DNA of 64,000 nt, from the IMG/VR virus record IMGVR_UViG_2703718817_000003; one strand, written 5' to 3'. The position numbers and the translations under genes were made by a program. The stretch is from a virus (Duplodnaviria > Heunggongvirae > Uroviricota > Caudoviricetes). A model generated the notes under the pieces. That model was not told the DNA's origin and did no database searches. It saw nothing but the letters and a program-made list of their open reading frames with translations. This document shows, piece by piece, positions 1-64,000 of the stretch (position 1 is its first letter; every line of letters begins with the position of its first letter).

Positions 1-183
1 GGTTGATTCTCGGCTTTACCCTGTCTGTCGTCGCTGCATGAATGCCCTTCCAGCCAGACCAGTGCTTGTCGCATGAAATACGCAATATGCTTGCCGTGGT
101 AATCGTCTTCATCGATGTGAAAAGCGATACTGCGGATATATTCAATTGCGTTTTCAATGGCCTCCGGCGTTATCGGTGCTGAC
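1..183 (-). pseudogene. 3'-ward continuation of the IS2-interrupted gene (runs off window)
   Basis: Removing IS2 and one CTGAC copy gives an open frame ...KNMSDPITPEALKNALEYIRSIAFHIDEDDYHGKHIAYFMRQALVWLEGH... continuing to position 1. Confidence 0.6.
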
Positions 184-194
184 TGGATTTGCCC

Positions 195-1100
195 CTATAT
201 TTCCAGACACCTGTTATCACTTAACCCATTACTGGCCTGCTGCCGCAGATATTCCCGTGGCGAGCGATAACCCAGTGCACTATGCGGATGCCATTCGTTA
301 TAATGCTCGAACGCCTCTGCAAGGTTCTTTGCTGCCGTTAACCCGTCTGGTTTAGGCATGATACTGATGTAGTCACGCTTTATCGTTTTCACGAAGCTCT
401 CTGCTATGCCGTTACTCTCCGGACTCCGCACCGCCGTGTTCTTCGGTTCAAGCCCCAACATCCGGGCAAACTGCCGTGTTTCATTAGCCCGGTAGCATGA
501 ACCATTATCCGTCAGCCACTCTACTGGAGACGCCGGAAGCTCGTTGCCGAAGCGGCGTTCCACCGCTCCCAGCATTACGTCCTGTACTGTTTCACTGTCG
601 AAGCCGCCCGTAGTGACTGCCCAGTGCAGTGCCTCACGGTCACAGCAGTCCAGCGCGAACGTGACTCGCAGTTTTTCTCCGTTATCACAGCGGAACTCGA
701 ACCCGTCAGAGCACCATCGTTGATTGCTTTCTTTCACGGCCACTTTGCCAGTATGTGCCCGTTTCGATGGCGGTACAGCGGTTTTTCGCTCAAGCAACAG
801 CGCATTCTGGCGCATGATCCGGTAAACACGTTTGGCATTGATCGCAGGCATACCATCAAGTTCGGCCTGTCTGCGAAGCAGCGCCCATACCCGACGATAA
901 CCATACGTGGGCAGCTCTCCGATAACATGGTGTATACGGAGAAGCACATCCGTATCATCTGAGTGACGGCTGCGGCGACCATCTTTCCAGTCATCGGTTC
1001 GTCTGAGAATTACGTGCAACTGCGCACGCGACACCCGGAGACAACGGCTGACTAAGCTTACTCCCCATCCCCGGGCAATAAGGGCGCGTGCGCTATCCAC
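195..1100 (-). CDS. insD: IS2 transposase InsD (orfB)
   Basis: 301-aa ORF with IS2 InsD sequence ([30 protein letters not shown]...). Confidence 0.9.
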
Positions 1101-1423
1101 TTTTTTGCACGCCCGTATTCAACGGCTTCTTTAAGGAGTTCATTTTCCATCGTTTTTTTGCCGAGCAGGCGCTGGAGTTCTTTAATCTGCTTCATGGCAA
1201 CAGCAAGTTCAGAGGCAGGAACGACCTGCTCTCCTGCGGCCACAGCAGTAAGACTTCCCTCCTGGTATTGCTTGCGCCAGAGAAATAACTGGCTGGCTGC
1301 CACACCGTGTTGCCGGGCAACAAGGGAGACCGTCATTCCCGGTTCAAAACTCTGCTGAACAATAGCGATCTTTTCCTGTGTAGTACGCCGTCTGCGTTTC
1401 TCCGGTCCTAAGACATCAATCAT
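1058..1423 (-). CDS. insC: IS2 InsC (orfA), start moved to [12 protein letters not shown]
   Basis: ORF-track frame 1058..1468; canonical InsC start [26 protein letters not shown] at 1423; overlaps insD as in IS3-family frameshift architecture. Confidence 0.85.
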
Positions 1424-1519
1424 CTGCTCTCCAATGACTAGTCTAAAAACTAGTATTAAGACTATCACTTATTTAAGTGATATTGGTTGTCTGGAGATTC
1501 AGGGGGCCAGTCTACTGAC

Positions 1520-1887
1520 ATATTTTTATTTTGGAGTGCCAAGACGCGGCTGGCATCCTCTACGCCTTTAACTGCATCTGCGCAGTAGTTATAGCGATTG
1601 CATTCCACTAACTTCTGCTTGAGATTTTCAATTGCTTGTGCGACATCAGCCTGCAATTCCGGAACTGGCGGAGTGGCATATAACGGCACCCACTTTGGTG
1701 CTTTATCCCCGACCGAACGCTGATACCAGTCACCCGGTTTGTATTCATAAAAATCACCAACTGGCTCTGCTTCCAGAGATGCCAGCGCAATTTCATAAGC
1801 ACGGCGCTCAATATTGTCTCGCACGTCCAGACTGCCTATGCGCTCTTTGATTTCTTTAATCAGTTCTTTGTCGGTTAAAGTGGTCAT
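1520..1887 (-). pseudogene. 5' part of a phage gene interrupted by IS2
   Basis: ORF 1465..1887 is native for its first ~124 codons (MTTLTDKELIKEIKERIG...) then runs into IS2 sequence; reading frame resumes across the target duplication at 183. Confidence 0.7.
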
Positions 1888-1897
1888 AAATTATGCC

Positions 1898-2431
1898 TCA
1901 GTTGTATCCGATTGGATTAACCGCAACAATAACGCCATCCGCGAACAAATCTTTAATGAGGTGTTCGCTCGGCTCGCCTTTTTCGTACTCTTCAATAAGG
2001 TAAGTGTCTCCATCCTCATTGATATAAACTGGAAGAATGGAACCGTTGATGAAGTAGGTTCCGTTGTTATCGAGGATTTTTGCCTCGGCGATTTGTTTTT
2101 TGGTAAAACGATCTTCTTTTTTCAAAGTTGCCATATCTGTTTCCTTATGTGGGTTAATTTTATTGTGTAGCTTCCTGAATGGGGTCCACACTATATCGAT
2201 ATACAGTTCAACTAACGGTTCAAATACTTTCCCCATTAGAACAGTCACTAATATTGAGGCTATTGGTATCAGCAACACGAAAAACAGAATGATAAACAGC
2301 AATTCTAGTGCTCTACTCTTTCGCGGATATTCTTTTCTGAATAAAGTGGGCATTTCCTCCCCATTAAATGCCTCAATGATTTCTCCAGTGTTTTGCGCTG
2401 CACCTGAATTATCTTTAAATCCTTCTTTCAT
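1898..2431 (-). CDS. hypothetical protein with hydrophobic segment
   Basis: 177-aa ORF, 4-bp overlap with upstream gene; LLFIILFFVLLIPIASILVTVL transmembrane-like stretch. Confidence 0.5.
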   Translation of the reverse strand: MKEGFKDNSGAAQNTGEIIEAFNGEEMPTLFRKEYPRKSRALELLFIILFFVLLIPIASILVTVLMGKVFEPLVELYIDIVWTPFRKLHNKINPHKETDMATLKKEDRFTKKQIAEAKILDNNGTYFINGSILPVYINEDGDTYLIEEYEKGEPSEHLIKDLFADGVIVAVNPIGYN

Positions 2432-3126
2432 CGTTTGCTATCTTCCTCACACCCAAGATATGAAAGAGATGTAATTGCTTTTGCACGGAAACCACCAACC
2501 TTGCTAAGTGCGCTTTTAAGTGCGTCAAGGTCAGATTGTGATTTGATCATGAAAGTTAACCGCGCAATTCCAGACATAGAGTCAGAACCATTCACTGCGT
2601 TGTAGTGATATATGTATCGGGTGACTGATTGAGTCACGCCCTCCTGCTGGTGGTTTATATTGGCGTCCTGTCTTGTGTTGGCCTGCTCCAACTCTTCGAT
2701 ACGTTCAGCCATCGCAGCACACTCTTCAAAGTTGCTTAATGCTTTTCGCTCCGATTCAGCGCATTGTTTTTCCAGTTCTGCTATGCGCTTACCTCCATCC
2801 GCGATTACTCCCTCGTAATGCTCGCGCTGCTCGTTGAGTTTTGATTTTGCCGACTCCAGTTGTTTTGTTAGTTCCACAATACGGCAAACATCGTTGATAC
2901 GCGTTTCCTCTAATGCGTTGATCTCATCCAGTAGTGCCAAAGCAACCTTGGGATTAAAGGCAGCAATAAATTCAGCGTTGTTTTTCAGAACGTGTTGCGC
3001 AATGGCCTGACTACTTAGTCGGACCTCATAACCACGTGCGCCACGGTGTGGTTTATATGAGTCCCAGTCTCCCCACGTTGCTTTCACTGCCGCCTCACGC
3101 AGTGCCTGGTAATTAATTTCGCTCAC
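2428..3126 (-). CDS. Ea22-like phage protein
   Basis: N-terminus [13 protein letters not shown] typical of Ead/Ea22-like family; GTG start overlapping upstream stop (GTGA). Confidence 0.7.
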   Translation of the reverse strand: MSEINYQALREAAVKATWGDWDSYKPHRGARGYEVRLSSQAIAQHVLKNNAEFIAAFNPKVALALLDEINALEETRINDVCRIVELTKQLESAKSKLNEQREHYEGVIADGGKRIAELEKQCAESERKALSNFEECAAMAERIEELEQANTRQDANINHQQEGVTQSVTRYIYHYNAVNGSDSMSGIARLTFMIKSQSDLDALKSALSKVGGFRAKAITSLSYLGCEEDSKR

Positions 3127-4256: not shown

Positions 4257-4305
4257 GCCACTACCTATTCGAACAGATGAACGAGATTTGATGCATACTC
4301 ACGGT

Positions 4306-5034
4306 TTATTCCTGAATGCGCTTAAACTCGATTACCCACACCCAGGGATTAGCGTTCCAGCTTTCTTCACCATAGATGGATTCCCACAGGCGCTGGAACG
4401 CAACCTTGGCCATTGCGAAATCCCCCTTGGGAGTAAGGAATGTTCCCGGGTGATCAGGGAGCAAACTTCCAGCAGGCGGAACGCCCTCATCCCTTGCATC
4501 GCATTCGCTGATATCGTTCAACCGCTCAACGCGCACGTTGGTAATTTCCAACAGGATGCGTGATGCCCATCGCGGCATGTGAATTGATGGACGCCACCCA
4601 CCATCAAACTTTTCATTCACAGTGTGAGGTTTCCAGTCGGCATCATCGGGTATCGACCATAAACCGTAATCACCAGGCTTTTGCTCACAACTGGCCCGAT
4701 AAATCCTTGCTGCGTTCTTCTCATCGCCACGACAAAGGTTGTCGTTCCAGTCCACACTGCAACCATCTTCATTGCCTAATATCGCCCATGTTTCACGAAC
4801 CCAAATTCGATCGCCGACGATACCAAAGGGGCAATTGAAAACACTGCTTACACCATCAGCCCCGTACCACTGAAAACCTGCACCAATTTCCCTAACCATC
4901 ACTGGTGCTTCTGGACCAACTTCCGCAGGCTGATTTTTCATTATCCGCCGCGTCTGCGTTTTCCTTCCTTCGAGGATGGCTCGGACCATCTCATCGTTAA
5001 AAATCATCCCGCGTTCTTTCATTTTTTGATCCAC
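4306..5034 (-). CDS. ASCH/PUA-like domain phage protein
   Basis: MIFNDEMVRAILEGRKTQTRR resembles the ASCH motif (G-x-K-x-x-E/T-x-R); start among three nearby Met is uncertain. Confidence 0.5.
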   Translation of the reverse strand: MDQKMKERGMIFNDEMVRAILEGRKTQTRRIMKNQPAEVGPEAPVMVREIGAGFQWYGADGVSSVFNCPFGIVGDRIWVRETWAILGNEDGCSVDWNDNLCRGDEKNAARIYRASCEQKPGDYGLWSIPDDADWKPHTVNEKFDGGWRPSIHMPRWASRILLEITNVRVERLNDISECDARDEGVPPAGSLLPDHPGTFLTPKGDFAMAKVAFQRLWESIYGEESWNANPWVWVIEFKRIQE

Positions 5035-12072: not shown

Positions 12073-12178
12073 TAAAACACACAGTTGCGCCCTGGCATTA
12101 TCGTGGGGTATATTTCTACGGCACCTTAGAAAAACGGGTGCCGGGATTGGAACCCCGGATAATGTCAAAGGCGACACA

Positions 12179-12200
12179 GACGCCGAAAGCGTCTTTTTTT
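12179..12200 (+). terminator. Rho-independent terminator
   Basis: GACGC-CGAAA-GCGTC hairpin followed by TTTTTTT. Confidence 0.6.
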
Positions 12201-12224
12201 GTGTCATGCCATCGCGCAGCCATA

Positions 12225-14308: not shown

Positions 14309-14328
14309 TTCTGCCTCCGCTGCGTAAC

Positions 14329-51176: not shown

Positions 51177-51187
51177 AAAATGAACAC

Positions 51188-51815: not shown

Positions 51816-52261
51816 TGGGTGACTTTGGAAATTATTTCATTTTTATCATGGCATTTGTTGCCGTTATTGACCGTTTCTTATTTCGTCGCAAGAGTGTTGA
51901 TATTTTGAGCATTGGCGAAGCTGTAGTGAAAGAGTCTGCTATAGCGTTTCCTGTGTCGCTTCGCGTTAAACGAAGCTGGGTAAGCAATGCACAAATCGAA
52001 TATTGGTTGCAGGACTTGAAAAATCCATCTGTGGTTATTTCGGGGAAAACCAGACCAGTTGACGCATCAAAACGCGGTGAGAGAGAAGAATATTTGCTCA
52101 TCGACACGAAATATCTTGAGCCAGCGAAGTGGGATCTAAAGGTCACATTGACTAACGGTAATTGCCGCCTGAATCCGCTTTATCGCATTTTCCCTATCAA
52201 TGACTGCATAGAACGTCAGTTTATGATTGAAAAGTGTGAAGGAGACTGGAATGTCAAATAA
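51815..52261 (+). CDS. membrane-anchored protein downstream of holin (antiholin/LydB-like candidate)
   Basis: 148 aa, N-terminal TM (YFIFIMAFVAVI); start overlaps holin stop. Confidence 0.4.
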   Translation: MGDFGNYFIFIMAFVAVIDRFLFRRKSVDILSIGEAVVKESAIAFPVSLRVKRSWVSNAQIEYWLQDLKNPSVVISGKTRPVDASKRGEREEYLLIDTKYLEPAKWDLKVTLTNGNCRLNPLYRIFPINDCIERQFMIEKCEGDWNVK

Positions 52262-52868
52262 GTCTAATTATGTTCTTCTTAATTATGATGAGTTAAACGA
52301 AAAGGGGCTGGCAAAACTCGTCAAAGAAATCGATAAAGGAGGCTACAAGATAGCGAGGGTGATCCCCGCCAGTAATGGCAGGAAGAAAGACGGGATCATG
52401 ACGCGCACGTTTACCCTTATCGGAATCGATGAGCAGACGATGGACGTTCAGGTTAATGATACTGGTGATATTTCTGGTGTAAAACTGAACGGAAAAATTG
52501 TTCCTTTCAAGCCAGTTAAAACGCTGATGGCTTTAGGGCAATCACTGGCTGCTTTATTTAATAAAGGCGCATCATCATTTCAGAAATCATTGGCGCGTAA
52601 GTTAGCTCGTGCGGCGAAAGATATTGATGATGGGAATAAGAAAATAAAAGGCGTTAAGTCCAATGCGCAGAAACTAGCAGAGGCAAAGGAATCTCGCGAT
52701 GCGATCCGCGAGGATATTGAAAGGGCCAAAGAAAAATTAAATCAGGTGCAAGGTAATTCAGACCGCGCAACAAGAGAAACTGAAATCATTAGAACCGAGA
52801 TGGCGCAGGAACTGGCGAAAACTCGCGTATTGAAAGAAGAAATAGCGCGCCTGGAGGAAGATGCATGA
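52251..52868 (+). CDS. hypothetical coiled-coil protein (dar-like operon)
   Basis: ATG 52251 with GGAGA SD; C-terminal half charged coiled-coil. Confidence 0.45.
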   Translation: MSNKSNYVLLNYDELNEKGLAKLVKEIDKGGYKIARVIPASNGRKKDGIMTRTFTLIGIDEQTMDVQVNDTGDISGVKLNGKIVPFKPVKTLMALGQSLAALFNKGASSFQKSLARKLARAAKDIDDGNKKIKGVKSNAQKLAEAKESRDAIREDIERAKEKLNQVQGNSDRATRETEIIRTEMAQELAKTRVLKEEIARLEEDA

Positions 52869-54817
52869 TAAAGAAACCTATTCGAATAAATATCCAGTCC
52901 ACTTTTGCAGATACGCTCACTGGATATACGCCTAATCGTTGGGTGGCGGAAGATATCACCGAGGATGATTTACTTATCGAGCCTGCGACGCTGGAAGATA
53001 TCGAGCTGGCCTATATGGGCAACGAAATTTTGGTAACTACCAATGAGGCAATGTTCGAAGCTATAACCACAACAAAATTGCGGTTAGCGCAAACAATGCG
53101 AGCATTTGTCCGGGCGCTTAATCGCGGCCTGAATGGCACTGACATTGCTGCGGGTACGGATGAGGCAGGTGAATATGAAGACGGACGTAATAGTATCGGT
53201 GGGGCAATCATTGGGCGCGTGCGCCGGGTTGCTAATATCCCTGTTGTAACAGCACAAATACCTCTAACCGATGGACAAACGACAAGCATAATTTTCCATT
53301 CTCCAACCGCAGACGGCACAAGAATTAAAGGGGATGACGAGCTGGTTGCGTTTCAGTTTCTTCTTAACAAAAGAAACGTTACGCATGTTGTTGCGCCAAT
53401 CGGTGGGCGTGATGTATCTCTGAGCCAGGTGTGTCAGGCGCTTTCTAACCTCATTGAGCGTAACAGTGCAAAATTCAAAAAAGCAAAGGAGCGCCAGGAC
53501 AAAATGAAGGCTGATATTGAGGGGTATCTCAATGAAGCCGACAAGCTGGCAGAAGAACGTTCTGTGCTGATTGAGCAGGTTGAAGACGCACAGCGGGGGC
53601 TGGCAGAGAAACGCTCAACACTCAATGATATGCAGAATAAATTAGACGCACAAAAAGCCCTTAACGCGGAATTGCAGGCTAAACGCGATAATTTATTGTC
53701 AGCTAAGAGCCAAGGAACTAAAGAGCGTGCCTTCAATGATCAACTGCGACACATAAAACATAATCTTGCTACAGAAGGCCAAACAACGCTGGATAATGGT
53801 GCTGTAGTTAAGTATGTCACGTCAGGCAGTGATAGCTTTGTCACGATTGAGGCACCAGAAGGCAATTTCAGTATTGATGTCAGTGCTGTTAAAGGTGGGA
53901 GTTCAGCGGACGCTGCAACCAAATTACTTAAAGCCTATCGTGAACATAATGCTGATCAATACAAAGTGGATGTGTTGCCGGGCCAGCCTGAGCCAACTGA
54001 TCAGCCGCAGCCTGAACAGGAGCCACAACCAGCATCACATCCTGATCCCCTGGAGGTTGGTAAATATCGCTATGCGCTCCAATCTCGCCCGGCGGGTGTT
54101 GGTGCGGTTCCTGAAGGAAATAAAGCTGTACTTGACCGTCCTGATCAGGCTGATCCGTATTACGAATATGCTCGTCACGGAATCATTACGTATGACCGCA
54201 AACTGACAGACGAAGAAGTCAGTCAGTACGAGTTGCTATATCTCCCTGGTGACGATGAATTGAAAGAGATTGCAGGCGAATTGGTTGCGTCCAGTATGTC
54301 GAACCATATTGATGGCTATGTTGATCTGTTTGGAAGCGACTTGAAAACCTTTAAGGCGCAGATAAAAATCCTCTTCCGCAAAGCATTTCCTAACGTCGCT
54401 TATCCACTTGGAGATGGGGAGAACCTTTTTATAATGGATATCTATGACGCGCTTCAGAATCAATCAGAAGTAGTCGAAGCTGAACAGACATTAGATCAGG
54501 CACCGGAAGCAGTACAAGAACCAGAACCTGAGTCTGAACCTGAATCCCCCCAAGAGTCTGATACAGGTTCAGATGGGCCAGTAGTTAGTGAGGCTGATCA
54601 GGAGGCGGACAGTGCGCTGGAATATCTGAAATCCGTGCCGTTGCAGTTTACGTCCCGTGATTTGACGGTGATTAGAGCGGAGTTTGATCGCATTCAGGAG
54701 GCAGCTAATGTTCTTATCAACGCAGGTCGATATGATGAGAACGAGTCACTTGTTGGTGCGGCAGCCGATCACCTGATCAACATTCTGGCAGAGATACAAC
54801 AAGGGGGCGTGTGGTGA
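52865..54817 (+). CDS. large hypothetical protein (DarA-like by size and position)
   Basis: 650 aa; ATGA overlap with upstream gene; acidic Pro/Glu-rich linkers; no enzymatic motif. Confidence 0.45.
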   Translation: MIKKPIRINIQSTFADTLTGYTPNRWVAEDITEDDLLIEPATLEDIELAYMGNEILVTTNEAMFEAITTTKLRLAQTMRAFVRALNRGLNGTDIAAGTDEAGEYEDGRNSIGGAIIGRVRRVANIPVVTAQIPLTDGQTTSIIFHSPTADGTRIKGDDELVAFQFLLNKRNVTHVVAPIGGRDVSLSQVCQALSNLIERNSAKFKKAKERQDKMKADIEGYLNEADKLAEERSVLIEQVEDAQRGLAEKRSTLNDMQNKLDAQKALNAELQAKRDNLLSAKSQGTKERAFNDQLRHIKHNLATEGQTTLDNGAVVKYVTSGSDSFVTIEAPEGNFSIDVSAVKGGSSADAATKLLKAYREHNADQYKVDVLPGQPEPTDQPQPEQEPQPASHPDPLEVGKYRYALQSRPAGVGAVPEGNKAVLDRPDQADPYYEYARHGIITYDRKLTDEEVSQYELLYLPGDDELKEIAGELVASSMSNHIDGYVDLFGSDLKTFKAQIKILFRKAFPNVAYPLGDGENLFIMDIYDALQNQSEVVEAEQTLDQAPEAVQEPEPESEPESPQESDTGSDGPVVSEADQEADSALEYLKSVPLQFTSRDLTVIRAEFDRIQEAANVLINAGRYDENESLVGAAADHLINILAEIQQGGVW

Positions 54818-55182
54818 AAATATCAGTAACGGAGCGCCTTAGCTTAGGCAAAGAACTGTCTGAGCTGATGTCAGCGCAAAAAAGCGCGACTGCGGTACAA
54901 CGTGTCACTATTGGCGTGCGGATAGTTGAAGTGATGATGAAGCTGGGGCTTGGTTCATCGAATAATCCAGCACAACAGCAAGAAGAGGAAGTGCAACCGG
55001 CGGCACAAGAAACGCCTAAAATTGTTGCTGACTTCCTTAGTGGTGCATTTACTAAATCATCACAAATGGAGTTCATCGATGCTTTGAGAGGCATATCTCA
55101 ATATATTGGTGAATTTTTGACACTCGACCAGGCCAAAGAACAGACCGTAAACTGGGTTTCAGCTAACGGGTATGCAGCGTAA
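54811..55182 (+). CDS. hypothetical protein
   Basis: 123 aa, GTG start overlapping upstream stop. Confidence 0.4.
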   Translation: MVKISVTERLSLGKELSELMSAQKSATAVQRVTIGVRIVEVMMKLGLGSSNNPAQQQEEEVQPAAQETPKIVADFLSGAFTKSSQMEFIDALRGISQYIGEFLTLDQAKEQTVNWVSANGYAA

Positions 55183-55273
55183 AAGAGAGGGGCAGAATGC
55201 CCCTTTCTTCTTAAAATAGTCACCGAAATAACACACTTTTTACACTGCCTTTTTTACAGAAAGGTGGTTAATT

Positions 55274-56659
55274 GTGACTCAAAACGTAACATCAGCACTT
55301 CTGGCCGCAGCGAACATTGAGGGGGTTATCGCTGTGGTGTCATCTCTTGAAAAGCAAGAGACGAAGTTGGGGCGTAGCAGCTATGTCGTCACCAGCAAAG
55401 GCGACGAAGTTAAAACAGCGTTCAAGGTTATTGATGCCAAAAAGCTCATCATTTCTAACAACCTGGACGGAAGTATAAATCCGTCATTTCCGGAGGAACT
55501 CCAGCCTCGCGATCGCACCCGACTGTCAAGTAAGCTCCAGGTTAACCGTATCGCCGCCAATTTACGCCCGGCACAGCTCACTGATTCGGGTATGAGTAGT
55601 CATGGTTCCCCGATTGTTGGTCCGGATAATGTCGTTGAGTCTGGTAATGGTCGAAGCATGGGAATCTGGCGTGCTTATGAACAAGGACAGGCTGAAGATT
55701 ACCGACAATATCTTATCGATCACGCTAAAGAGTTTGGCCTTAATCCCGAAGACGTCAGGGCAATGGTGATGCCTGTACTGGTTCGCGAGCGCCTCACTGA
55801 CGTTGATCGTGCTCAATTTGCACGCGACTCAAACATCAGCGATCTGCAAGAGATGGCTGCAAGTGAGAAAGCGTATGCGGATGCGCAATTTCTCACTGAG
55901 AGCGTCATGGCGCTATTTAATCCTTCAGATGATGGAAATCTACTGGCGCGGTCCAATGATGCGTTTATTCGTGCGTTTTTGCACGAAATAGGCGATACCG
56001 CGACGGCAGGTTTGCTTACAGCCGATGGACGTCCAACGAAACAGCTTATCGATCGCATTCAGAATGCGATTTTTGCCAAAGCCTATAAGGATGAGCGACT
56101 TGTTCGGCTTGTGGCGGAAGAACCGGATCCGGAAATGCGCAATATCCTGACCGCGCTTAATACAGCAGCCAGTGACTTTGCGCAAATGCAGTCGATTTCT
56201 GGCGATGCACATCATGATGCTGTAACTGGTCTGGTTGATGGTATAGAGCAGGTGAACGGTCTGGATAAACAGGCTATAGCAGCACTCCAGGACGCGATTA
56301 ACCTTGTTCGTGAAGCCAAAGACAACGGTCAGGCAGTGGAAGAGGTGATAGCCCAGCGCGGACTCTTCGGTGATAGCACGCCGGAAGCTGAGGCGTTGGC
56401 GCTATTCATCGTGGCAAATAATCGAAGCGCGAAGCGCATGGGGGCTGCATTCAAAAAAATGGCACAAAAAATCAACGACGAACTGATTCATAAACAGCAG
56501 GCGTTGGGCGATATGTTCGGCGGTGGAGATGTCGATCTACGTAGTATTTTGACCGCTGTTTCTAATGAGATTGAACTGGAACATGGAGAGGGGAAAGGGC
56601 TTAACTTCACGATGTTCGAAGCCAAAACAGAACAAAGCGATTTTGGGCTGGAAACCTGA
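55274..56659 (+). CDS. hypothetical protein
   Basis: 461 aa, GTG start with AAGGTGG SD; terminator hairpin (CCCCGGA..TCCGGGG, 56675-56693) downstream. Confidence 0.45.
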   Translation: MTQNVTSALLAAANIEGVIAVVSSLEKQETKLGRSSYVVTSKGDEVKTAFKVIDAKKLIISNNLDGSINPSFPEELQPRDRTRLSSKLQVNRIAANLRPAQLTDSGMSSHGSPIVGPDNVVESGNGRSMGIWRAYEQGQAEDYRQYLIDHAKEFGLNPEDVRAMVMPVLVRERLTDVDRAQFARDSNISDLQEMAASEKAYADAQFLTESVMALFNPSDDGNLLARSNDAFIRAFLHEIGDTATAGLLTADGRPTKQLIDRIQNAIFAKAYKDERLVRLVAEEPDPEMRNILTALNTAASDFAQMQSISGDAHHDAVTGLVDGIEQVNGLDKQAIAALQDAINLVREAKDNGQAVEEVIAQRGLFGDSTPEAEALALFIVANNRSAKRMGAAFKKMAQKINDELIHKQQALGDMFGGGDVDLRSILTAVSNEIELEHGEGKGLNFTMFEAKTEQSDFGLET

Positions 56660-56771
56660 CCTGGCGACCGGACACCCCGGATAACCTCCGGGGGATTCGG
56701 TATTTCTTCTTTGAATAGAGCATTTTTAACAAATATCCCGTAAATCCTCGCCCAGCCAGGGCGGGGAGCAG

Positions 56772-57203
56772 TCACCGCATTGGTGTGACAGATACGGCGA
56801 TATTTTTATTCAGTTGATGCAGTGCCAGCTCGACAGTTTCAACTTTCGATGAATGTTCGACGTCGAGAAGCCGATCAATCTGTGTTCCATTTTTTCCGAG
56901 TTTGCGCGCCAACTCTGCTTTGCGTGTGCCGGTTTCTATCATCGCGTTGTGGAGTGCAGCCTTCATTGCTGGTAGCACTGGCAAAGAGACAACGTACTCA
57001 CCTTCTTTTGGCTCGCTACCAGTGGGAACAGGTCGGCGTTCTTCAATCTCAATCGCAACCGCTGCGACCAATCCATAACCAGCCTCAAGCAACGCTTCTT
57101 TAACTGAGTCACCCACGGAATTAAACAATGGTAGGTCGCGGCATGATACGACATACGCGCCGGTTTTGTCGTCGCGCTCCAGTTTTACCGGATAGTTAAA
57201 CAT
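56772..57203 (-). CDS. hicB: HicB antitoxin
   Basis: N-terminal YPVKLERDDKTGAYVVSCRDLP RNase-H-like HicB fold signature plus C-terminal HTH; downstream of hicA. Confidence 0.75.
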   Translation of the reverse strand: MFNYPVKLERDDKTGAYVVSCRDLPLFNSVGDSVKEALLEAGYGLVAAVAIEIEERRPVPTGSEPKEGEYVVSLPVLPAMKAALHNAMIETGTRKAELARKLGKNGTQIDRLLDVEHSSKVETVELALHQLNKNIAVSVTPMR

Positions 57204-57233
57204 AGAGAAGCTCCTAGTGAAAAAGGCTGGGGC

Positions 57234-57440
57234 TTAAAGCCACAGGTCCTTCATTATTTTCTTGCGTAGCGGTTCAGGCATTTCCTTTGAACCGTGGTCC
57301 GGGAAAACCGACCGCTTTCCGTTCAGGTTCACTTTCTGATGACTGCCGCCACCTGGCGCTTTCCTGAACTCTGCCCCTTGCTGGATTAACCAGCGTTTGA
57401 ACTGTGACTGCTCCCCGCCCGGTCGGACGAGGATTCCCAC
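57234..57440 (-). CDS. hicA: HicA toxin
   Basis: GSHQK, RSVFPDH, LRKKIMKDL motifs of HicA family; no ATG, putative GTG start 4 nt after tnpB stop. Confidence 0.65.
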   Translation of the reverse strand: MGILVRPGGEQSQFKRWLIQQGAEFRKAPGGGSHQKVNLNGKRSVFPDHGSKEMPEPLRKKIMKDLWL

Positions 57441-58720
57441 TTCTCAGGCCGCAACCGTCTGTTCGACGGATTTACGCTGGCCTCCATGGACAGAAACGAC
57501 GAGTCCCGCCGCCTTTAGTTCCAGTATTCCTTTTTGCCGGATGTTGAGTGCCGCATTGATATCGCGGTCATGCTCTGCTCCACATTCAGGGCATCGCCAG
57601 ATGCGTTTATGAAGAGGCATTTCCGGCATCCTGTAACCACAACAATGGCAGTTTTTCGAACTGGCAAACCACTGGTCGAGTTTTACCAGGTGAACGCCTT
57701 TTTCTGCAGCCTTGTACTCCAGCTTTGTGATGAAGCTGTGCCAGCCTGCATCACCTATCGCTCTTGCCAGATTGTGGTTTTTCATCATGTTGGCTGTTTT
57801 CAGCGTCTCCACAATTACCGCTTGGTTTTCGTCAACAATTGCACGAGAGAGCTTGTGTTGAAAATCAGCACGGGCATTAGCCACCCGTTCGTGTAAGGCC
57901 GCAAGACGGATTCTGGCCTTTTTACGATTCGCGCTTCCCTTTTGCTTACGGGATAATGCTTTTTGTTTGCGTCGCAGATTACGACCTGCATTGATGAGAT
58001 GGCGAGGATTCGGAACTTTTACAGCATCAGAAGTGATGGCATAGTGCTCCAGTCCCATATCCAGACCTGTAATCTTTTCTTCCTTCAGGTACGTGGGTTT
58101 CTCTGGTGCGGAAGCGCCATCGTCACAAAGAATGGAAGCGTAGTATTTCCCCGTTGCAGAACGGGTGACAGTGATGCTTTTCAGCTTTCCATGAAGTTCA
58201 CGATGAAGGCGTGCTTCTATCGGGGCCAGTTTGGGGATTTTGATGGCATTATCCAGCACCTTAATCCCGACACAGTGATAGCTCGATTGTTTTCCGCGTT
58301 TGCGTTTAAACGTCGGGAACCGGGCTTTCAGCTTCGGATTAAAAAAGTTGGAAAACGCCACATCAAGATTGATTACCGCCTGTTGCAATGCCATTGAATC
58401 AAATTCTTTAAGCCAGGCATATCTGCGGGACTTCTTCGCCACAGACAACAACGGCTTTAAATCTTTACGCGGACTTAAATTCACTCCGTGTCGCTGGTAA
58501 GCGTGTTTTTTGATGTGAAGAGCTTTGTTGTACGCAAAACGCACTGCACCGAACTGAGCATTGAGATACTCAGCCTGTTCAGTGGTTGGATAGATGCGTA
58601 CTTTTGTTGCTCTTAACATAGTCACGGCTCATTGATACAGGTTTTTATGCTAACACCGTAATAATATTTTTAAAGCCCTTCGAGCTTTTCCGCCTTTCCT
58701 CCCCGCCCGCATTGGGCGAG
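57415..58720 (-). mobile_element. IS605/IS1341-group tnpB-only element (ends approximate)
   Basis: tnpB with no adjacent tnpA; element ends not defined from sequence alone. Confidence 0.45.
57444..58625 (-). CDS. tnpB: IS605-family TnpB (OrfB) RNA-guided nuclease-type transposase accessory protein
   Basis: 393 aa; N-terminal KVRIYPTTEQAEYLN..RFAYNKAL, central GLDMG, C-terminal CHCCGYR...CPECGAEHDRDINAALNI zinc finger. Confidence 0.85.
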   Translation of the reverse strand: MTMLRATKVRIYPTTEQAEYLNAQFGAVRFAYNKALHIKKHAYQRHGVNLSPRKDLKPLLSVAKKSRRYAWLKEFDSMALQQAVINLDVAFSNFFNPKLKARFPTFKRKRGKQSSYHCVGIKVLDNAIKIPKLAPIEARLHRELHGKLKSITVTRSATGKYYASILCDDGASAPEKPTYLKEEKITGLDMGLEHYAITSDAVKVPNPRHLINAGRNLRRKQKALSRKQKGSANRKKARIRLAALHERVANARADFQHKLSRAIVDENQAVIVETLKTANMMKNHNLARAIGDAGWHSFITKLEYKAAEKGVHLVKLDQWFASSKNCHCCGYRMPEMPLHKRIWRCPECGAEHDRDINAALNIRQKGILELKAAGLVVSVHGGQRKSVEQTVAA

Positions 58721-58883
58721 GGTTCTCGGCGGTTGTTTGCTGAATACTTCACAAGTTTCCTTATGCGATTTATCCATCGTGGGCGATAAGAATAGCAACA
58801 CAAAAGATGTAAAACACAACAAAAATGTTTATAAACATAACTTTTGTGTTTAGTGATTGCGTTTTTGGAAAAGCATTTCCGCA

Positions 58884-58958
58884 TATGAAAAAAAACATAA
58901 ATGATGAAAAAAACATCAATAAATGGTGAAAACAACGAAAAATTACTGATGAAATCAC
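58884..58958 (+). repeat. four direct (T/G)RTGAAAA repeats in AT-rich region upstream of portal-like gene
   Basis: TATGAAAAAAAACAT, GATGAAAAAAACAT, GGTGAAAACAAC, GATGAAATCAC at ~20-bp intervals. Confidence 0.35.
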
Positions 58959-59004
58959 ACACTGGATAAGCTGCCACGAAATCGGAAACCTTTTGCGGTG
59001 AATC

Positions 59005-60690
59005 ATGGCAACGAAAGACAAAAACAAGGGCTTTCTGTCGGCATTGAAGAAAGCCTTCAGCGGTGGTGATGTTACGCCTGCCGATCCGGTCGTATTTGCG
59101 AGCGGGCATAGCGTCGTTGCTCGTTCTGGCCTGTCCGCCTTGCGTCCTGGCATCCTGGGGAGCAATAGCGATGGCATGACAAGCGCGGCGGATACTGTAT
59201 CTATATCGGCAGAATTACCGAGTGACCGCCTGCAAAAATACAACATACTGGAGACGATGGCGAAAAGTCCGACTATCTCCACAGCATTAAACATTCACAT
59301 TGCGCATTCTCTGGCTCCATCAAAAAAAACAGGCCTCGCATTTATTCTCTCTCCGAAAAATGGGGCGGATAAGGAGGCTGTAAGTCGATGTGAGGAATTG
59401 ACCGCTGATTTAAGCTCAATGATTAATGATGGCCTGCCATCGTGGGCCATGATCATGGCTATTTTCGGTGTGTCGTATATCCGTCCATATGCAGAGCAAG
59501 GGAAGGGGATAACTGGAATTGAGTCGAGCTATTACACGCTCCCTCATTTCGTTCAGGAGTTTTATCGCGGTAGCCAACTTGTCGGATTCAGCGGTGATTA
59601 TATTCTGGATACGCATACTTTGCGCAGAGTTATAACCGAACCGTGGAATCTGGTTTCCATGAAAAACCCGTACTGGATGCCTCAGCATAAAGTAATGCCA
59701 GTAACTTACGGCACTAACGGCTATTCCTTGCTTAGTGAACAGCAGGACAAGCCGTTAATGGAGACGCAGAACTACGGTACGTCGTTTCTTGAATACAGTT
59801 ATGAACCCTACCTGAATTTATGTGCCGCGCTTGCTGCGCTGAAAGCAACGCGAAACAACGCTGCAAAAATTGATCGCCTGATTGCACTCACAACGAACAC
59901 GATAGATCCGGTAAACGCGGCGAATTATACGCGCGGGGTCAGCCAGGCACTGAAGCGTCATAGCGACCTCGTAGCGCAACGGTCGATTAATTCTAATGCT
60001 CTCCCATCTGTACTTAACCATCTGATACCCGTCATGGGGGATGGGAAGAACGGGATCACCATTGATACGCAATCTATACCCGCAGATATCAGTGGTATCG
60101 AAGACGTTATGTTTCATCTCCGACAGCTCGCGGCAAGCCTCGGTATTGACGCAACAATGCTTGGCTGGGCTGATCAGATGAGTGGTGGACTTGGAGAAGG
60201 CGGTTGGCAGCAAACAGCTATCCAGGCCGCCTTACGCGCGAACTGGATCAGACAGGCCGCCCAGCGGACTATTTATCGGCTTCATGACATTCACCTCGCT
60301 TATAAATACGGGAAGGTTTACACCGAAAAAAACCGTCCTTATGACGTGCAATTCAACTCAATGAACACAGCTATCCAGGAAGAGGAAAACCGAGAGCTGG
60401 ATGCGCGCGCCAACTTCGTAGCTGTCATCTCGCAAATAATGGACCAGATCCAGAACAACCCGAAACTGGCGGGTAGCGACGCGTTTATGCGTTATCTGTT
60501 CACCGAACAGCTTCGTATCGACGATGACACTCTCAACGTAATGATCAAAGAGTTTAAGGCGAATGAATCAGAGCAAAACAACGAGCATGGTATGTACGAA
60601 TCCGCGCCGTTGTCGTCCGGTGACGATCCGGAAAACTGGACGCAAGAACAATTAATCAACTTTGCAAAATTTGTGATGAGCAATAATTAA
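59005..60690 (+). CDS. putative portal protein
   Basis: 561 aa followed by protease/scaffold-like gene; assignment by size and gene order. Confidence 0.35.
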   Translation: MATKDKNKGFLSALKKAFSGGDVTPADPVVFASGHSVVARSGLSALRPGILGSNSDGMTSAADTVSISAELPSDRLQKYNILETMAKSPTISTALNIHIAHSLAPSKKTGLAFILSPKNGADKEAVSRCEELTADLSSMINDGLPSWAMIMAIFGVSYIRPYAEQGKGITGIESSYYTLPHFVQEFYRGSQLVGFSGDYILDTHTLRRVITEPWNLVSMKNPYWMPQHKVMPVTYGTNGYSLLSEQQDKPLMETQNYGTSFLEYSYEPYLNLCAALAALKATRNNAAKIDRLIALTTNTIDPVNAANYTRGVSQALKRHSDLVAQRSINSNALPSVLNHLIPVMGDGKNGITIDTQSIPADISGIEDVMFHLRQLAASLGIDATMLGWADQMSGGLGEGGWQQTAIQAALRANWIRQAAQRTIYRLHDIHLAYKYGKVYTEKNRPYDVQFNSMNTAIQEEENRELDARANFVAVISQIMDQIQNNPKLAGSDAFMRYLFTEQLRIDDDTLNVMIKEFKANESEQNNEHGMYESAPLSSGDDPENWTQEQLINFAKFVMSNN

Positions 60691-60703
60691 CCGGAGGGAA
60701 ATA

Positions 60704-61702
60704 ATGCAATCACTGAATACCGTTACGGATCGCTTCTCCCTGGTAGAGAAAATCCGCAAACACACACCTCAGAACAATCGCAATTACGTTATCCAGTCGG
60801 TACGAGACACATTCAACTCGCCAGAAACAAAAGAGCGTATCGCACTGGGTGAGATGTATGGTTATTACGGTCATGGTCGCCGGGCGATGCACTATAACAA
60901 AACGAAAAGCCTGGACTTGCCGGAAGTCTCTGTTGTGATGGTAGATGGGAAGCCTGTTGTATTGGAGAACGTGCCGTCAAACAGGACTATCGACATTTCA
61001 ATTGACGACAACGGCATTGTTACCCATACACAGGAAATACTGGATACGGACACCGGACGTATTGTTCAGGGTATGATTAATTCTGGCGCAGGTGGTTGGT
61101 CATGGGCTACATCTGGTCCAGATTACTCTGTATCCCTGGTAAAGTCTTTTCACGGTTTTGATTACGTAACTGTGCCTAACTATATCAGCCTCGACAAGAA
61201 AAGCCTGATGCTTGAATCAGCAGAAGAACGCGACGCGGCGATTCATGCGGCACTTATCGAACAAGGTTTTACCGATAATGCTGCTACGGATCTGGTTCAC
61301 CACTTTTCAGCAATGAAGAGTCAGCAAGCCATATTCGAATCAGCACAACGTGAAGTTCTGGAGTCGGAACTGATACATCTTGAAGTGGAAAATATGCAGC
61401 TTCGCGACAAACTACGCGACCAGGCCGCGATGATGGAAAGCCAGGGGGAGAACGCGAAGAAATGCCGCCGTATTTTGCGTGATGCTATCCAGGAAATGCC
61501 TGTTTTTATCAGCGCAGAACAGCGCCGGGCGCTCTGCCGTATGCAGTCAGAGGATGATGCACGCATTGTCGCAGCGATGCTTGAATCCCTGGGGGCTAAT
61601 GCCACTTATGGTCTGCCAATATCAGCCAATAAACAACAAGAAATACCGGTGAAAGAGAACAAGACGGTGACTCCGCTGATCTTTGTGTCTAAGAGGATGT
61701 GA
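60704..61702 (+). CDS. putative head maturation protease / scaffold protein
   Basis: 332 aa with C-terminal coiled-coil region; position after portal-like gene. Confidence 0.35.
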   Translation: MQSLNTVTDRFSLVEKIRKHTPQNNRNYVIQSVRDTFNSPETKERIALGEMYGYYGHGRRAMHYNKTKSLDLPEVSVVMVDGKPVVLENVPSNRTIDISIDDNGIVTHTQEILDTDTGRIVQGMINSGAGGWSWATSGPDYSVSLVKSFHGFDYVTVPNYISLDKKSLMLESAEERDAAIHAALIEQGFTDNAATDLVHHFSAMKSQQAIFESAQREVLESELIHLEVENMQLRDKLRDQAAMMESQGENAKKCRRILRDAIQEMPVFISAEQRRALCRMQSEDDARIVAAMLESLGANATYGLPISANKQQEIPVKENKTVTPLIFVSKRM

Positions 61703-61818
61703 GCTAAAAGCTAGCTTAATTTTCTAACACAGTGTGTTTTTATACACTGTTGATCCGATGGCGCGTGATCGAGTAGGATCGCGGTCACTGCTCCGGTAGC
61801 GACTGCCAAAAAAGCAAA

Positions 61819-61840
61819 AGCCGCTGAGAAGCGGCTTTTG
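61819..61840 (+). terminator. Rho-independent terminator
   Basis: AGCCGC-TGAGAA-GCGGCT hairpin followed by TTTTG, preceded by A-run. Confidence 0.6.
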
Positions 61841-61842
61841 GG

Positions 61843-61870
61843 TGTATAAATCTCCGGACATAGATTTATA
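61843..61870. promoter_or_regulatory. perfect 10-bp inverted repeat (GTATAAATCT-N8-AGATTTATAC) upstream of 61901 gene
   Basis: Seen directly; followed by second imperfect IR TAGATAG..CTATCT. Confidence 0.45.
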
Positions 61871-61900
61871 CGGTAGATAGATTTTTCACGGTACTATCTG

Positions 61901-62860
61901 GTGAGTATTTTAAATTCAGTTTCAGTAACTTTCAACACTTCTGAGTATAAAAACAACACTGAATACCACAAAAAAATCAAAGGTCATCAGTTGAGTTTTT
62001 TTGCTCGTCATAGCGGTTTTCTTTCCCCTTCACATAGCGCCATTATTGCCGAGTTCGCCAACCTGGCAGGAGCTACCGATGAATACATGATCCGTCGCTC
62101 ATATGCTGATATGTCCGAGATTACAGGACGCAGTATTTCTACTGTGCGCCGGGCATTTACCGAAGCGACGAAGTGCGGAATGCTTGTTAAGCAGCATCAG
62201 GTAGCGAATAACAATGCTCAGGTGTGTAACGTGTACCGGTTTACAACACAATTTCTCCACTTCATTCATGTAGCAATGGAGATAGGGAGTAAGCAGGGCA
62301 TCAAATTTGCCAACGCCACAAAACTGGTTAAGCAGTTGATTTCAAAGGTTCGTTATTTTTTTGAAACTGGGAACCCCCTGTTCAAATTGAACAAGTCCCC
62401 CCATGTTCAAAATGAACAGCCAATAGAAAATAAGAGTCACTCTATAGCCAAAAGAAGAGAAAGATCATGCGCGGTTCAGCCAAAGGCTTCACCAGCAGAT
62501 AGTTCTCAAGCGGATAATGGCTTGCTGGATAAAAAAACAGTAATCAGGGAAGAACTTACCAACCACTGCCTGGCGGCAGCAAAAGCGAGAGCTGCAAAGC
62601 GTCGTTCAGACGAGGGGTACGCAAAACGGCAGGCTCTGTATCGTACCGCTGAAAAACTGGCAAAAAAATTTGCATGGTTACGTAGTGCTACCACAGTGAA
62701 TAAGCCCAAACGATCCAGCGCCCTGGATTTCTCTATGGATTATTCTGCTTCCCAGGGATGTGCAACCATCAATGAAGCATTTGACCTGATGAAACAGCGT
62801 GGCTATCGGTCTGAATTTGACCGGGAAGACTGGTCAATTCCGGAGGGCTTTCGGGGATGA
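61901..62860 (+). CDS. HTH DNA-binding protein (candidate regulator or replication-associated protein)
   Basis: HTH-like segment MSEITGRSISTVRRAFTEATKCGML; start uncertain (GTG 61901, TTG 61991 or ATG 62084). Confidence 0.45.
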   Translation: MSILNSVSVTFNTSEYKNNTEYHKKIKGHQLSFFARHSGFLSPSHSAIIAEFANLAGATDEYMIRRSYADMSEITGRSISTVRRAFTEATKCGMLVKQHQVANNNAQVCNVYRFTTQFLHFIHVAMEIGSKQGIKFANATKLVKQLISKVRYFFETGNPLFKLNKSPHVQNEQPIENKSHSIAKRRERSCAVQPKASPADSSQADNGLLDKKTVIREELTNHCLAAAKARAAKRRSDEGYAKRQALYRTAEKLAKKFAWLRSATTVNKPKRSSALDFSMDYSASQGCATINEAFDLMKQRGYRSEFDREDWSIPEGFRG

Positions 62861-62916
62861 TGTTGCGATTGACTGTACAATAACCGTGCGGCGGGAATTT
62901 CATCGCTCGAAAATGT

Positions 62917-62946
62917 ATGTTAGAAAATTAAATTGATGTTTCTAAT
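62917..62946. promoter_or_regulatory. palindromic operator-like site upstream of second immI module
   Basis: ATGTTAGAAAATTAAATTGATGTTTCTAAT; further half-site TCTTTCTAATG at 63005-63015. Confidence 0.5.
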
Positions 62947-63139
62947 CAAGAATGTATGATTTATATCGTCACTAAAAAACAGCATCTGATAAAAATTCTG
63001 TTGATCTTTCTAATGTTCAGGCTTATATTCATGCCGTCGTAGCAAATTCTGCGACCGGGTTTAGCAGCCTGAATGTTAGTGCGGACAACCGCAGATATCC
63101 GATATTGCGGTATTTTTGTGTCCGTAAAACCGCGTTACG

Positions 63140-63225
63140 CCCAAATTATGGTGGGGCGTGATGGGGAGGCTTCGGCCTGCTGGTTTCACTAACGCCAGTC
63201 TGCTAACCCCGTCACGTCCTGCCAC
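63140..63225 (+). ncRNA. c4-like antisense RNA of immI-type module (copy 2, different specificity)
   Basis: b' TTCACTAAC (63185-63193) and a' CTGCTAA (63200-63206) complementary to b2 GTTAGTGAG (63260-63268, includes SD) and a2 TTAGCAG (63230-63236); a1/b1 copies at 63061-63081; boundaries approximate. Confidence 0.45.
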
Positions 63226-63276
63226 CTGTTTAGCAGCGGGTAGCAGGTTGTTAAACCTGTTAGTGAGGCCGTAACT

Positions 63277-63501
63277 ATGGTTAATGCCAATCCTTGCTCA
63301 CGTCCAGAATTCATCTGGCGTTTTCACTCCCTGCAAAAACACTGCGATCACTTCGCAATTGCCGCAACTGAAAAAGAAGCCCGTTCTCTGATCCCGGATC
63401 AGTATGGCGTTCTCACTGGTCGTTTCTCTACTTCCCCACAACCAAACACCAATCCCTGGTATCGCAATATTACCAATCCCGGCATTGTGGAGGCTCACTG
63501 A
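63277..63501 (+). CDS. Icd-like small protein (immI module copy 2)
   Basis: 74 aa paralog of 12386..12601 (PEFIWRFHSLQKH...); stop overlaps rha start. Confidence 0.6.
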   Translation: MVNANPCSRPEFIWRFHSLQKHCDHFAIAATEKEARSLIPDQYGVLTGRFSTSPQPNTNPWYRNITNPGIVEAH

Positions 63502-63986
63502 TGGATATCTGCATTCTCGAAAAGCCATCAATGACAAGCATTGAGATCGCGGAGCTGGTGGGAAAACGTCATGACAATGTGAAACGCACTATTGAGACAT
63601 TAGCCAAAGGTGGCGTTATTGTTCGTCCTCAAATTGAGGTTTTCGAAAAAATCAATAACTTAGGACTACGACGTAGTGTTGAGGCTTACGTCTTCGAAGG
63701 CGAGCAAGGCAAGCGCGATAGCATTATCGTCGTCGCGCAGCTCTCTCCCGAATTCACCGCCCGGCTGGTGGACCGCTGGCGCGAACTGGAAGAACAAGTA
63801 CGCCAGCCGTTGACCGAAATAGAGATGATCGCTGCAATGGCTGCAAATGCAGTTCAGCAGCAAAAGCGGCTTCATGTTGTTGAGTCAAAGGTTAGCCAGG
63901 TTGCTGAAACCGTCGAGCAGATCAAGAAAGGCAATATTCCGGAAGGCTACATTGGCTATCGCCAGTTGGCGGCAAATGCGGCCTGA
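63501..63986 (+). CDS. Rha-family protein, copy 2, apparently frameshifted/truncated
   Basis: N-terminal 150 aa paralogous to 12601..13542; 1-nt deletion relative to copy 1 near 63975 (GCGGCAAATGC vs GCGGCGAAATGC) gives stop at 63986. Confidence 0.55.
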   Translation: MDICILEKPSMTSIEIAELVGKRHDNVKRTIETLAKGGVIVRPQIEVFEKINNLGLRRSVEAYVFEGEQGKRDSIIVVAQLSPEFTARLVDRWRELEEQVRQPLTEIEMIAAMAANAVQQQKRLHVVESKVSQVAETVEQIKKGNIPEGYIGYRQLAANAA

Positions 63987-64000
63987 CTGAAGCCAAATGC

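Follow-up and report, generated by a model that had tools for sequence, protein, structure and literature searches.

The stretch of DNA analysed here, 64,000 nucleotides of the IMG/VR virus record IMGVR_UViG_2703718817_000003 (Caudoviricetes) and called the window below, carries the virion and lysis genes of a P1-type myovirus together with the maintenance genes of a plasmid: a RepE-like replicon, two partition systems and two toxin-antitoxin pairs. A reading made from the sequence alone (hereafter the sequence-only reading) had taken it for a P1/D6-like extrachromosomal prophage with a swapped maintenance module. Its gene content and gene families, homologies, repeats and synteny with phage D6, together with its near-identity to circular plasmids, bear out the first part of that proposal, and we conclude with a probability of about 0.93 that the window makes up the middle two thirds of an Escherichia phage-plasmid belonging to the D6-like group, or P1-g2 subgroup, of P1-like elements. 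The six-frame set of open reading frames (ORFs) of the window was compared with D6 and P1 by tblastn, and protein identities to these two phages are given below on that basis.

The replication gene, rep (38199-38987, minus strand; likely true start at ATG 38954, as annotated in its relatives), encodes an initiator of the Rep_3 family. Both winged-helix domains (WH1 and WH2) are found in Pfam above the cut-offs, as Rep3_N (4.5e-29, 102 bits) and Rep3_C (3e-15, 56.7 bits), and a search of the Protein Data Bank (PDB) returned the F plasmid RepE structures 1rep and 2z9o at E values of about 1e-73. The protein is 98% identical in amino acids to D6 orf42, has no match in P1 and shows no detectable similarity to P1 RepA. 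Five tandem copies of a 19-bp iteron, TGAGGGCAAATCTTACACC, at a spacing of 22-32 bp, occupy 38979-39096, on the origin and promoter side of rep, where they lie directly upstream and extend over its start. They are followed by an AT-rich stretch (39139-39185, 72-80% AT), a DnaA-box-like site with one mismatch (39192-39200) and a single inverted iteron (39219-39237), and by analogy with the layout of F ori2 the segment 39139-39237 is presumed to be the unwinding side of the origin. Six more iterons in both orientations lie downstream of rep (37910-38201) and presumably serve copy control, in the manner of incC/incA. No other copy of the iteron occurs in the window at up to three mismatches, and the iterons of D6 are essentially identical to those found here. 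The sequence-only reading was therefore right both in calling the initiator RepE-type and flanked by iterons and in likening it to F RepE rather than to P1 RepA.

An actin-like segregation ATPase, ParM (26787-27803, minus strand; likely start 27743), matches Pfam StbA_N (2.4e-69) and the ParM C-terminal domain (9.8e-56) and, in the PDB, R1 ParM (E = 1e-110). Its amino acid identity to D6 orf58 is 93% but the DNA is only 77-80% identical, which fits purifying selection. The adjacent ParR/StbB-type adaptor gene (26411-26776, minus strand; Pfam Plasmid_stab_B, 3.1e-14) is much less conserved, with only 59% amino acid identity to D6 orf59, and the low identity of ParR set against the high identity of ParM suggests that ParR/parC specificity has changed among D6-like lineages. 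Upstream of parM, inspection revealed a parC-like array of about eight repeats with an 11-bp period (...TTTGTCTC..., 27830-27935). As far as their sequences tell, ParM, ParR and these upstream repeats are a type II ParMRC system, as had been predicted.

The second system centres on a small ParA/ParF-type partition ATPase of 213 amino acids (25484-26125, minus strand; Pfam AAA_31, MipZ and CbiA), a small Walker ATPase without an N-terminal DNA-binding domain. Its nearest solved relative in the PDB is TP228 ParF (3e-18), and it shares 96% of its amino acids with D6 orf60. Its 95-amino-acid partner (25204-25491, minus strand), 95% identical to D6 orf61, gave no match in Pfam or NCBIfam, nothing meaningful in PDB sequence and profile searches, and a weak Arc-like match among the PHROGs (4.7e-4). 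The family is narrow, comprising 15 homologues that are all at least 74% identical, and its conserved C-terminus follows a strand-helix-helix pattern. An AlphaFold2 (AF2) model, made from a shallow alignment of these 15 close relatives, has a mean predicted local distance difference test (pLDDT) score of 61 and places helices at residues 60-73 and 77-93 with pLDDT 75-82; a Foldseek search with it put ParG on top, followed by Arc, CopG, TacA, AmrZ and other ribbon-helix-helix proteins, every one at E > 1. The partner is probably a ParG-like ribbon-helix-helix centromere binder. Of the ParA/ribbon-helix-helix pair that had been proposed, the ParF-like ATPase and the small partner protein thus stand, while the fold of the latter is plausible but not proven. 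An inverted pair of the motif ACCAAAACGGTGTTATT, seen by inspection downstream of the ParA operon (25124-25197), has related copies on the upstream side of parA (about 26140-26160 and 26320-26341), and these copies are candidate centromere or operator sites.

The virion genes all lie on the plus strand, and every structural gene with a homologue in D6 is an intact, full-length ORF standing in D6 order. Genes 26, 25, 7, 24, 6 and 5 of the tail and baseplate (16869-22529), assigned from D6/P1 homology and annotation, are interrupted by a cargo slot holding yjaZ and sroH (18397-19300). A head and tail block (30779-37867), assigned by homology to D6 and P1, contains the major capsid protein Gp23 (30779-32476), an Ig-like protein (32606-32896), the sheath protein Gp22 (32962-34617) and the tail tube protein Tub (37130-37867), along with gp21, PmgG, BplB and PmgC. 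The third block (39341-51028) begins with PmgB and continues with the tape-measure/transglycosylase Sit (40217-44080), the baseplate wedge protein PmgA (44086-44460), BplA (44457-45887), gp16 (45897-46739), R, the tail fibre S (47305-50574; the block has a Pfam Gp53-like_C match) and the tail-fibre assembly protein U/Tfa (50606-51028; Pfam Caudo_TAP, 2.8e-34). The corresponding region (48499-51488) lacks the invertase Cin and the alternative fibre genes S'/U' that D6 and P1 have; of cin, only 87 bp from the 5' end persist (51261-51347), a part that in P1 contains the inversion enhancer. Further along lie hdf, darA, ddrA and ddrB (head-associated anti-restriction proteins; within 51489-56659, by D6/P1 homology), the portal gene (59005-60690; PHROG) and the head-processing gene pro (60704-61702).

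These assignments draw on PHROGs, on sequence searches of the PDB and on D6 and P1 homologues in place of Pfam, which returned no match for the capsid, sheath, tube, portal, Sit, PmgA, gp16 or RepL because P1-type virion proteins are poorly covered there. Gp23 matches the solved P1 capsid structure (E = 1.2e-164), and Gp16 and PmgA match solved chains of the P1 baseplate (7.6e-61 and 7.6e-20, respectively); the PHROG families gave 7e-190 for the sheath, 4e-94 for the tube, 3e-189 for the baseplate and 1.8e-225 for the portal. Amino acid identities of the virion proteins are 55-97% to D6 and about 40-56% to P1, as illustrated by Gp23 (87% to D6 and 44% to P1), Gp22 (80% and 42%), Tub (83% and 43%), PmgA (81% and 43%), BplA (83% and 42%), gp16 (77% and 43%) and the portal (94% and 48%); Sit is 55% identical to D6, its 152-amino-acid match to P1 not being comparable. 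Portal, Pro and the lytic replication protein RepL, which together span 59005-62860, reach 92-95% to D6 and 30-48% to P1. Solved P1 structures, PHROGs and phage homology agree on a myovirus-type head, sheath, baseplate and fibre with Tfa, and the similarity of the structural proteins to those of a myovirus is plain from the P1 Gp23, Gp16 and PmgA structures and from the PHROGs. The sequence-only reading had named the baseplate genes W-J-I; the genes are there, and their proper names in this element are PmgA, BplA and gp16, which we take to correspond to P2 W, J and I through the established homology of baseplates. In the P1 baseplate, PmgA is the equivalent of T4 gp25 and BplA that of T4 gp6 (bioRxiv 10.1101/2025.07.21.665459), gp16 being the third subunit of a BplA-BplA-gp16 wedge trimer whose gp16-gpR contact has been likened to T4 gp7-gp8 (bioRxiv 10.1101/2025.07.21.665459).

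Phage D6 (Escherichia phage D6, NC_050154.1, 91,159 bp) was the sole long match when the window was compared with phage records by megablast, and no SSU5-type record was among the phage matches listed. D6 and D6-like plasmid prophages were reportedly described by Gilcrease and Casjens in 2018. The phage matches the window in reverse orientation over three colinear stretches at 81-85% identity: window 1-24962 corresponds to D6 61.7-84.1 kb, 25206-49679 to 35.9-59.7 kb and 51434-63999 to 20.2-31.5 kb. Nearly all ORFs of at least 90 amino acids outside the insertion sequences and cargo slots have a colinear D6 match by tblastn. Searches of plasmid collections and of complete E. coli genomes gave closer matches still, the best of them at 97-99% identity: circular plasmids of 89-95 kb, classed as non-mobilizable, whose hosts are E. 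coli and E. marmotae. On direct alignment one of them, NZ_LR890273.1 (plasmid 4 of E. coli MINF_7C, circular, 92,830 bp), is colinear with almost the whole window at 98-99% nucleotide identity, except for two insertion sequences and for three short segments in which the cargo is replaced. NZ_CP104667.1, NZ_CP069647.1, NZ_CP098883.1 and NZ_CP159120.1 are further similar plasmids; like NZ_LR890273.1, they do not have the two insertions and differ from the window in cargo at 4273-4943, 15930-16805 and 18377-19251. Among complete E. coli genomes, the records that cover at least 80% of the 25-50 kb segment are without exception plasmids of 89-95 kb. The 64-kb window contains no tRNA gene, integrase, att site or chromosomal core gene. 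Each end of the window falls within a gene that has a D6 homologue, so that the window is an inner segment, roughly two thirds, of a D6-like phage-plasmid. Synteny with D6 over the whole length and the close match to circular plasmids about 90 kb in size support the earlier suggestion of a P1/D6-like extrachromosomal prophage.

The idea that its maintenance module had been swapped fares differently. In the RefSeq annotation of D6, a pfam01051 replication initiator already stands between pmgB and tub, and a StbA/ParM pair, a ParA-like gene followed by a small ORF, and a toxin-antitoxin pair are annotated as well; Rep, ParM, ParA and its partner in the window (98%, 93%, 96% and 95% identical to their D6 counterparts, as given above) occupy the same positions. 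D6-like plasmids have been described with a "repB associated with iteron sequences", cop/parA/stbB/parM, phd-doc and higA-higB (PMC6799933), and P1-g2 was defined with rep and par 14 persistent genes apart (PMC7969092). In the window, 14-15 genes separate par (25.2-27.9 kb) from rep (38.2-39.0 kb), as in that definition (PMC7969092). In P1, on the other hand, repA and parAB form one cassette that is flanked by gene 23 and upfA, and tub and pmgB are adjacent. Neither ParA nor ParM of the window, any more than Rep, matched P1 in tblastn, and P1 RepA with its own iterons and the type Ia ParA/ParB/parS were not detectable in the window. With different genes at different sites, the D6-type modules did not replace the P1 cassette in situ. 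We assign the RepE-like replicon, the R1-like ParMRC and the ParF-like ParA to the native D6 maintenance set, which published work treats as characteristic of the D6/P1-g2 subgroup (PMC6799933, PMC7969092), and a swap can be spoken of only relative to the old and known split between P1 and D6. The virion genes, for which a P1/P2-type order had been claimed around head-sheath and W-J-I-fibre-Tfa, are arranged as in D6 and mostly as in P1; the rep and par sites differ from those of P1.

Likeness to D6 is strongly mosaic. When the window was tiled in 500-bp pieces, nucleotide identity to D6 ranged from 68% to 98%, with most virion genes at 68-85%. The rep core (38501-39000) reaches 94.8% and parA with its partner (25001-26000) 92-95%, in both cases between flanking segments at 68-80%. 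Such islands suggest, on this pattern of identity, recombination or homogenisation of maintenance loci among D6-like lineages; it is a more speculative possibility that they mark an incompatibility-driven exchange of maintenance cassettes between those lineages.

Both toxin-antitoxin pairs foreseen by the sequence-only reading are present, one of them with its toxin gene interrupted. The higB toxin gene (16142-16486, plus strand; Pfam HigB-like_toxin, 1.2e-20, the match beginning at residue 24) precedes and overlaps by 4 bp the higA antitoxin gene (16483-16776, plus strand; HTH_3, 3.8e-10), whose product passes the NCBIfam HigA cut-off of 47.7 with 98.6 bits. On the minus strand, the hicB antitoxin gene (56772-57203; Pfam HicB-like_2, 3e-12) and the hicA toxin gene (ORF 57234-57440, native part 57234-57407; Pfam HicA_toxin, 1e-7) both retain their domains, but an IS200/IS605-family element of 1.33 kb (57408-58739, minus strand), absent from NZ_LR890273.1, sits in hicA behind its fourth codon. 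This element has hairpin ends and carries tnpB only (57444-58625; Pfam OrfB_IS605, Cas12f1-like_TNB and HTH_OrfB_IS605). The native start codon and promoter of hicA now lie about 1.3 kb off, at about 58740-58752, and what is left of hicA forms a fusion ORF, in frame and starting at a GTG 4 nt past the tnpB stop. From this arrangement the toxin may be either silenced or coupled to tnpB, and HicAB may be impaired here through the splitting of hicA. The second insertion sequence, an IS2 (183-1515) flanked by a 5-bp target duplication (CTGAC), splits a pmgU-like gene homologous to D6 orf104 and is 99.8% identical to a copy in phage phi456.

The predicted spanins and holin were likewise recovered. 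An i-spanin gene (29145-29603, plus strand), whose translation shows an N-terminal transmembrane segment and a coiled coil, overlaps that of an o-spanin lipoprotein with an LSGC lipobox (29437-29769, plus strand), and the pair (29145-29769) matches the Rz-like spanin PHROG (8.6e-15). The holin and antiholin genes lydA and lydB (51489-52261, plus strand) follow the fibre region; LydB has a Pfam match at 1.5e-24, and LydA falls below the Pfam holin cut-off (5.4e-4) yet is 94% identical to the D6 holin. The position of the D6 endolysin is just beyond the window. Two immunity loci are present on the plus strand. The first (12121-13542; homologous to D6 orf82/83) comprises an isrK-like RNA, a C4 antisense RNA (12244-12331), icd and an antirepressor gene, with Rfam scores of 77.1 bits for C4 and 62.7 bits for isrK, and the second (63023-63986; Rfam and homology to D6 orf18/19) comprises c4-a1b1 targets, a C4 RNA (63144-63229), icd and an antirepressor gene. 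RepL, identified by homology to D6 and P1, is encoded at 61901-62860 on the plus strand.

Three short segments differ in content from NZ_LR890273.1; lying between conserved blocks, they resemble hot spots for cargo. At 4273-4943 the window has a PmgT-like gene (97% identical to P1 pmgT) where the plasmid has a PAPS-reductase family gene; at 15930-16805 it has higBA where the plasmid has a 207-bp gap; and at 18377-19251 it has yjaZ/sroH where the plasmid has higB with a helix-turn-helix (HTH) antitoxin gene and a hypothetical gene. The YjaZ/HtrC homologue of 179 amino acids (18622-19161, minus strand) scores 332.9 bits in NCBIfam YjaZ against an equivalog cut-off of 324, and the sroH RNA (18435-18620, plus strand) scores 113 bits in Rfam. 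The pair is 77% identical in nucleotides to the chromosomal yjaZ-sroH locus beside rpoC and occurs on about 90 plasmid records among complete E. coli genomes, and the functional literature on YjaZ is almost nil. In D6, as in NZ_LR890273.1, the same gap between tail genes 25 and 7 holds higB with an HTH antitoxin. It would be a speculative and rather doubtful step to see in this gap an exchangeable addiction or defence slot in which yjaZ/sroH could be an uncharacterised protein-RNA module, toxin-antitoxin-like or anti-phage, recruited by phage-plasmids. PADLOC found no known defence match among ten cargo or unknown proteins. These included two ORFs of 130 and 253 amino acids (13916-15090, minus strand) that have signal-peptide-like N-termini, belong to PHROGs of unknown function and occupy the position of a simB-like gene in D6; they may be candidates for superinfection exclusion.

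A number of observations weigh against reading the window as part of a functional D6-like phage-plasmid with an F-like replicon and two partition systems. The cre/lox, c1, pacAB and phd-doc loci are not in the window; in D6 they are located outside its counterpart, the Cre/lox-type resolution system, C1 repressor, terminase genes and phd-doc lying at 0-5 kb and 86-91 kb, and they are also present in NZ_LR890273.1. Two of the maintenance proteins stay under their NCBIfam thresholds, Rep with 280.9 bits against the equivalog cut-off of 342 for RepE (NF010305) and ParA with 158 bits against 180 for ParA_partition, and the ribbon-helix-helix fold of the ParA partner is without statistical support. 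In addition, the IS2 in the pmgU-like gene, the TnpB element in hicA and the loss of cin and the alternative fibre could impair phage or addiction functions.

This last point leads to the alternative that survives best, namely that the element is a defective derivative of D6 which still replicates and segregates as a plasmid without producing infectious particles. The split pmgU-like gene is in its favour, as are the loss of Cin and the alternative fibre genes down to the 87-bp remnant and the position of the TnpB element next to the portal gene; moreover, many plasmids with P1-type structural genes may be defective phage-plasmids (PMC7969092, PMC10879196). Nevertheless, every D6-homologous structural, lysis and lytic-replication gene in the window is an intact, full-length ORF, neither insertion lies in a known essential virion gene, and the loss of cin merely fixes one fibre type, so that we regard a defective element as unlikely, while giving it more weight than any other alternative.

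A recent hybrid, in which an IncFIA (F plasmid) replicon and R1/TP228-type par cassettes would have replaced P1 repA-parAB, is very improbable. Rep, the iteron sequence and the origin layout do resemble F RepE/ori2, ParM resembles that of R1, and the rep and parA islands at 92-95% to D6 in a backbone of 68-85% indicate that such loci move or homogenise between lineages. In PLSDB, however, tblastn found Rep at 95% identity or more in at least 108 plasmids, of D6 type, and at 60-80% in a single record, the remainder being at about 50% or lower; IncFIA RepE is itself about 50% identical to Rep, and therefore nothing points to a recent capture from an F plasmid. On this identity gap we rejected a recent swap from F. 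The same genes are found in the same places in D6, at positions unlike the repA-parAB site of P1, and the virion proteins themselves are only 40-56% identical to those of P1, so that the divergence from P1 is old and genome-wide. That the window comes from a D6-like prophage integrated in a chromosome, for which one could cite the 128 chromosomal places among 743 matching places in complete E. coli genomes and the integrative P1-like prophages that have been reported (PMC10879196), is scarcely credible and was rejected, since the chromosomal matches are partial, the near-full-length matches are all plasmids, and the window combines a complete replicon with two par systems and has none of the integration features looked for above.

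As part of a D6-like phage-plasmid, and judging from the biology of F, R1, TP228 and P1, the copy in the window would be a circular plasmid whose modules work as follows. In the prophage state the element would persist as a low-copy circular plasmid. As in F, monomers of the RepE-type initiator would occupy the five iterons of the origin and act with DnaA to open the AT-rich stretch; Rep would probably repress its own promoter, which the iterons overlap, and the downstream iteron array would probably limit copy number by pairing. ParR bound to parC would nucleate ParM filaments that push copies apart, as in R1, and the ParF-like ATPase with its small partner would provide a second, independent positioning system with its own repeated sites, as in TP228. 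HigBA, together with Phd-Doc, which relatives carry outside the region covered by the window, would kill cells that lose the element. The two C4-RNA/icd/ant loci would guard lysogeny, the C4 RNAs silencing the antirepressors, with the C1 repressor encoded outside the window. After induction, RepL would drive lytic replication, a P1-type myovirus would be assembled, and LydA/LydB and the spanins would lyse the cell.

Phage-plasmids like D6 occur commonly in E. coli, Shigella and Salmonella, and the window has little significance beyond its correct annotation: the D6-like/P1-g2 family with its F-RepE-like replicon, double partition system and toxin-antitoxin genes is already known and published, and the window is an ordinary member of it. 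It is a clean worked example of the native D6 maintenance set residing at sites other than that of the P1 cassette. Of possible interest to specialists are the uneven identity of rep and parA to D6, the variable cargo slots between tail blocks and the plasmid-borne yjaZ/sroH.

Compared with known systems, the replicon resembles RepE/ori2 of plasmid F in its two-winged-helix Rep_3 initiator, its upstream tandem iterons at 22-bp spacing, its downstream array and its AT-rich and DnaA elements. The iterons of both are 19 bp long and share TGAGGGCAA...ACA, with 14 of 18 positions matching the F iteron and 4 of 18 differing, and the neighbours of rep are phage tail genes here, in contrast to sopABC in F. 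The ParM match at 1e-110 and the upstream array of 11-bp repeats recall the ParMRC system of R1, while the small ParA closest to ParF, together with the short protein behind it that has a strand-helix-helix pattern at its C-terminus, recalls ParFG of TP228; the window differs from R1 and TP228 in that the two systems adjoin on a phage genome and that neither sequence nor fold searches gave a significant match for its ParG-like partner. With P1 (NC_005856.1) it shares the virion architecture, most of the gene order, the Lyd lysis genes, the dar genes, repL, C4 immunity and the lifestyle of a plasmid prophage, at an amino acid identity of only 30-64%. From D6 it differs in several details besides the missing cin and S'/U' genes: it is without glnS; the C-terminal part of fibre S and Tfa are of a different type (Gp53-like_C), Tfa having 31% amino acid identity to D6 U; higBA stands between mat and gene 26 instead of between genes 25 and 7; and hicAB, the IS2 and the TnpB element are extra. 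In common with D6 it has two c4/icd/ant loci and repL, rep between tub and pmgB, the par loci between upfC and dmt, and the same gene order throughout.

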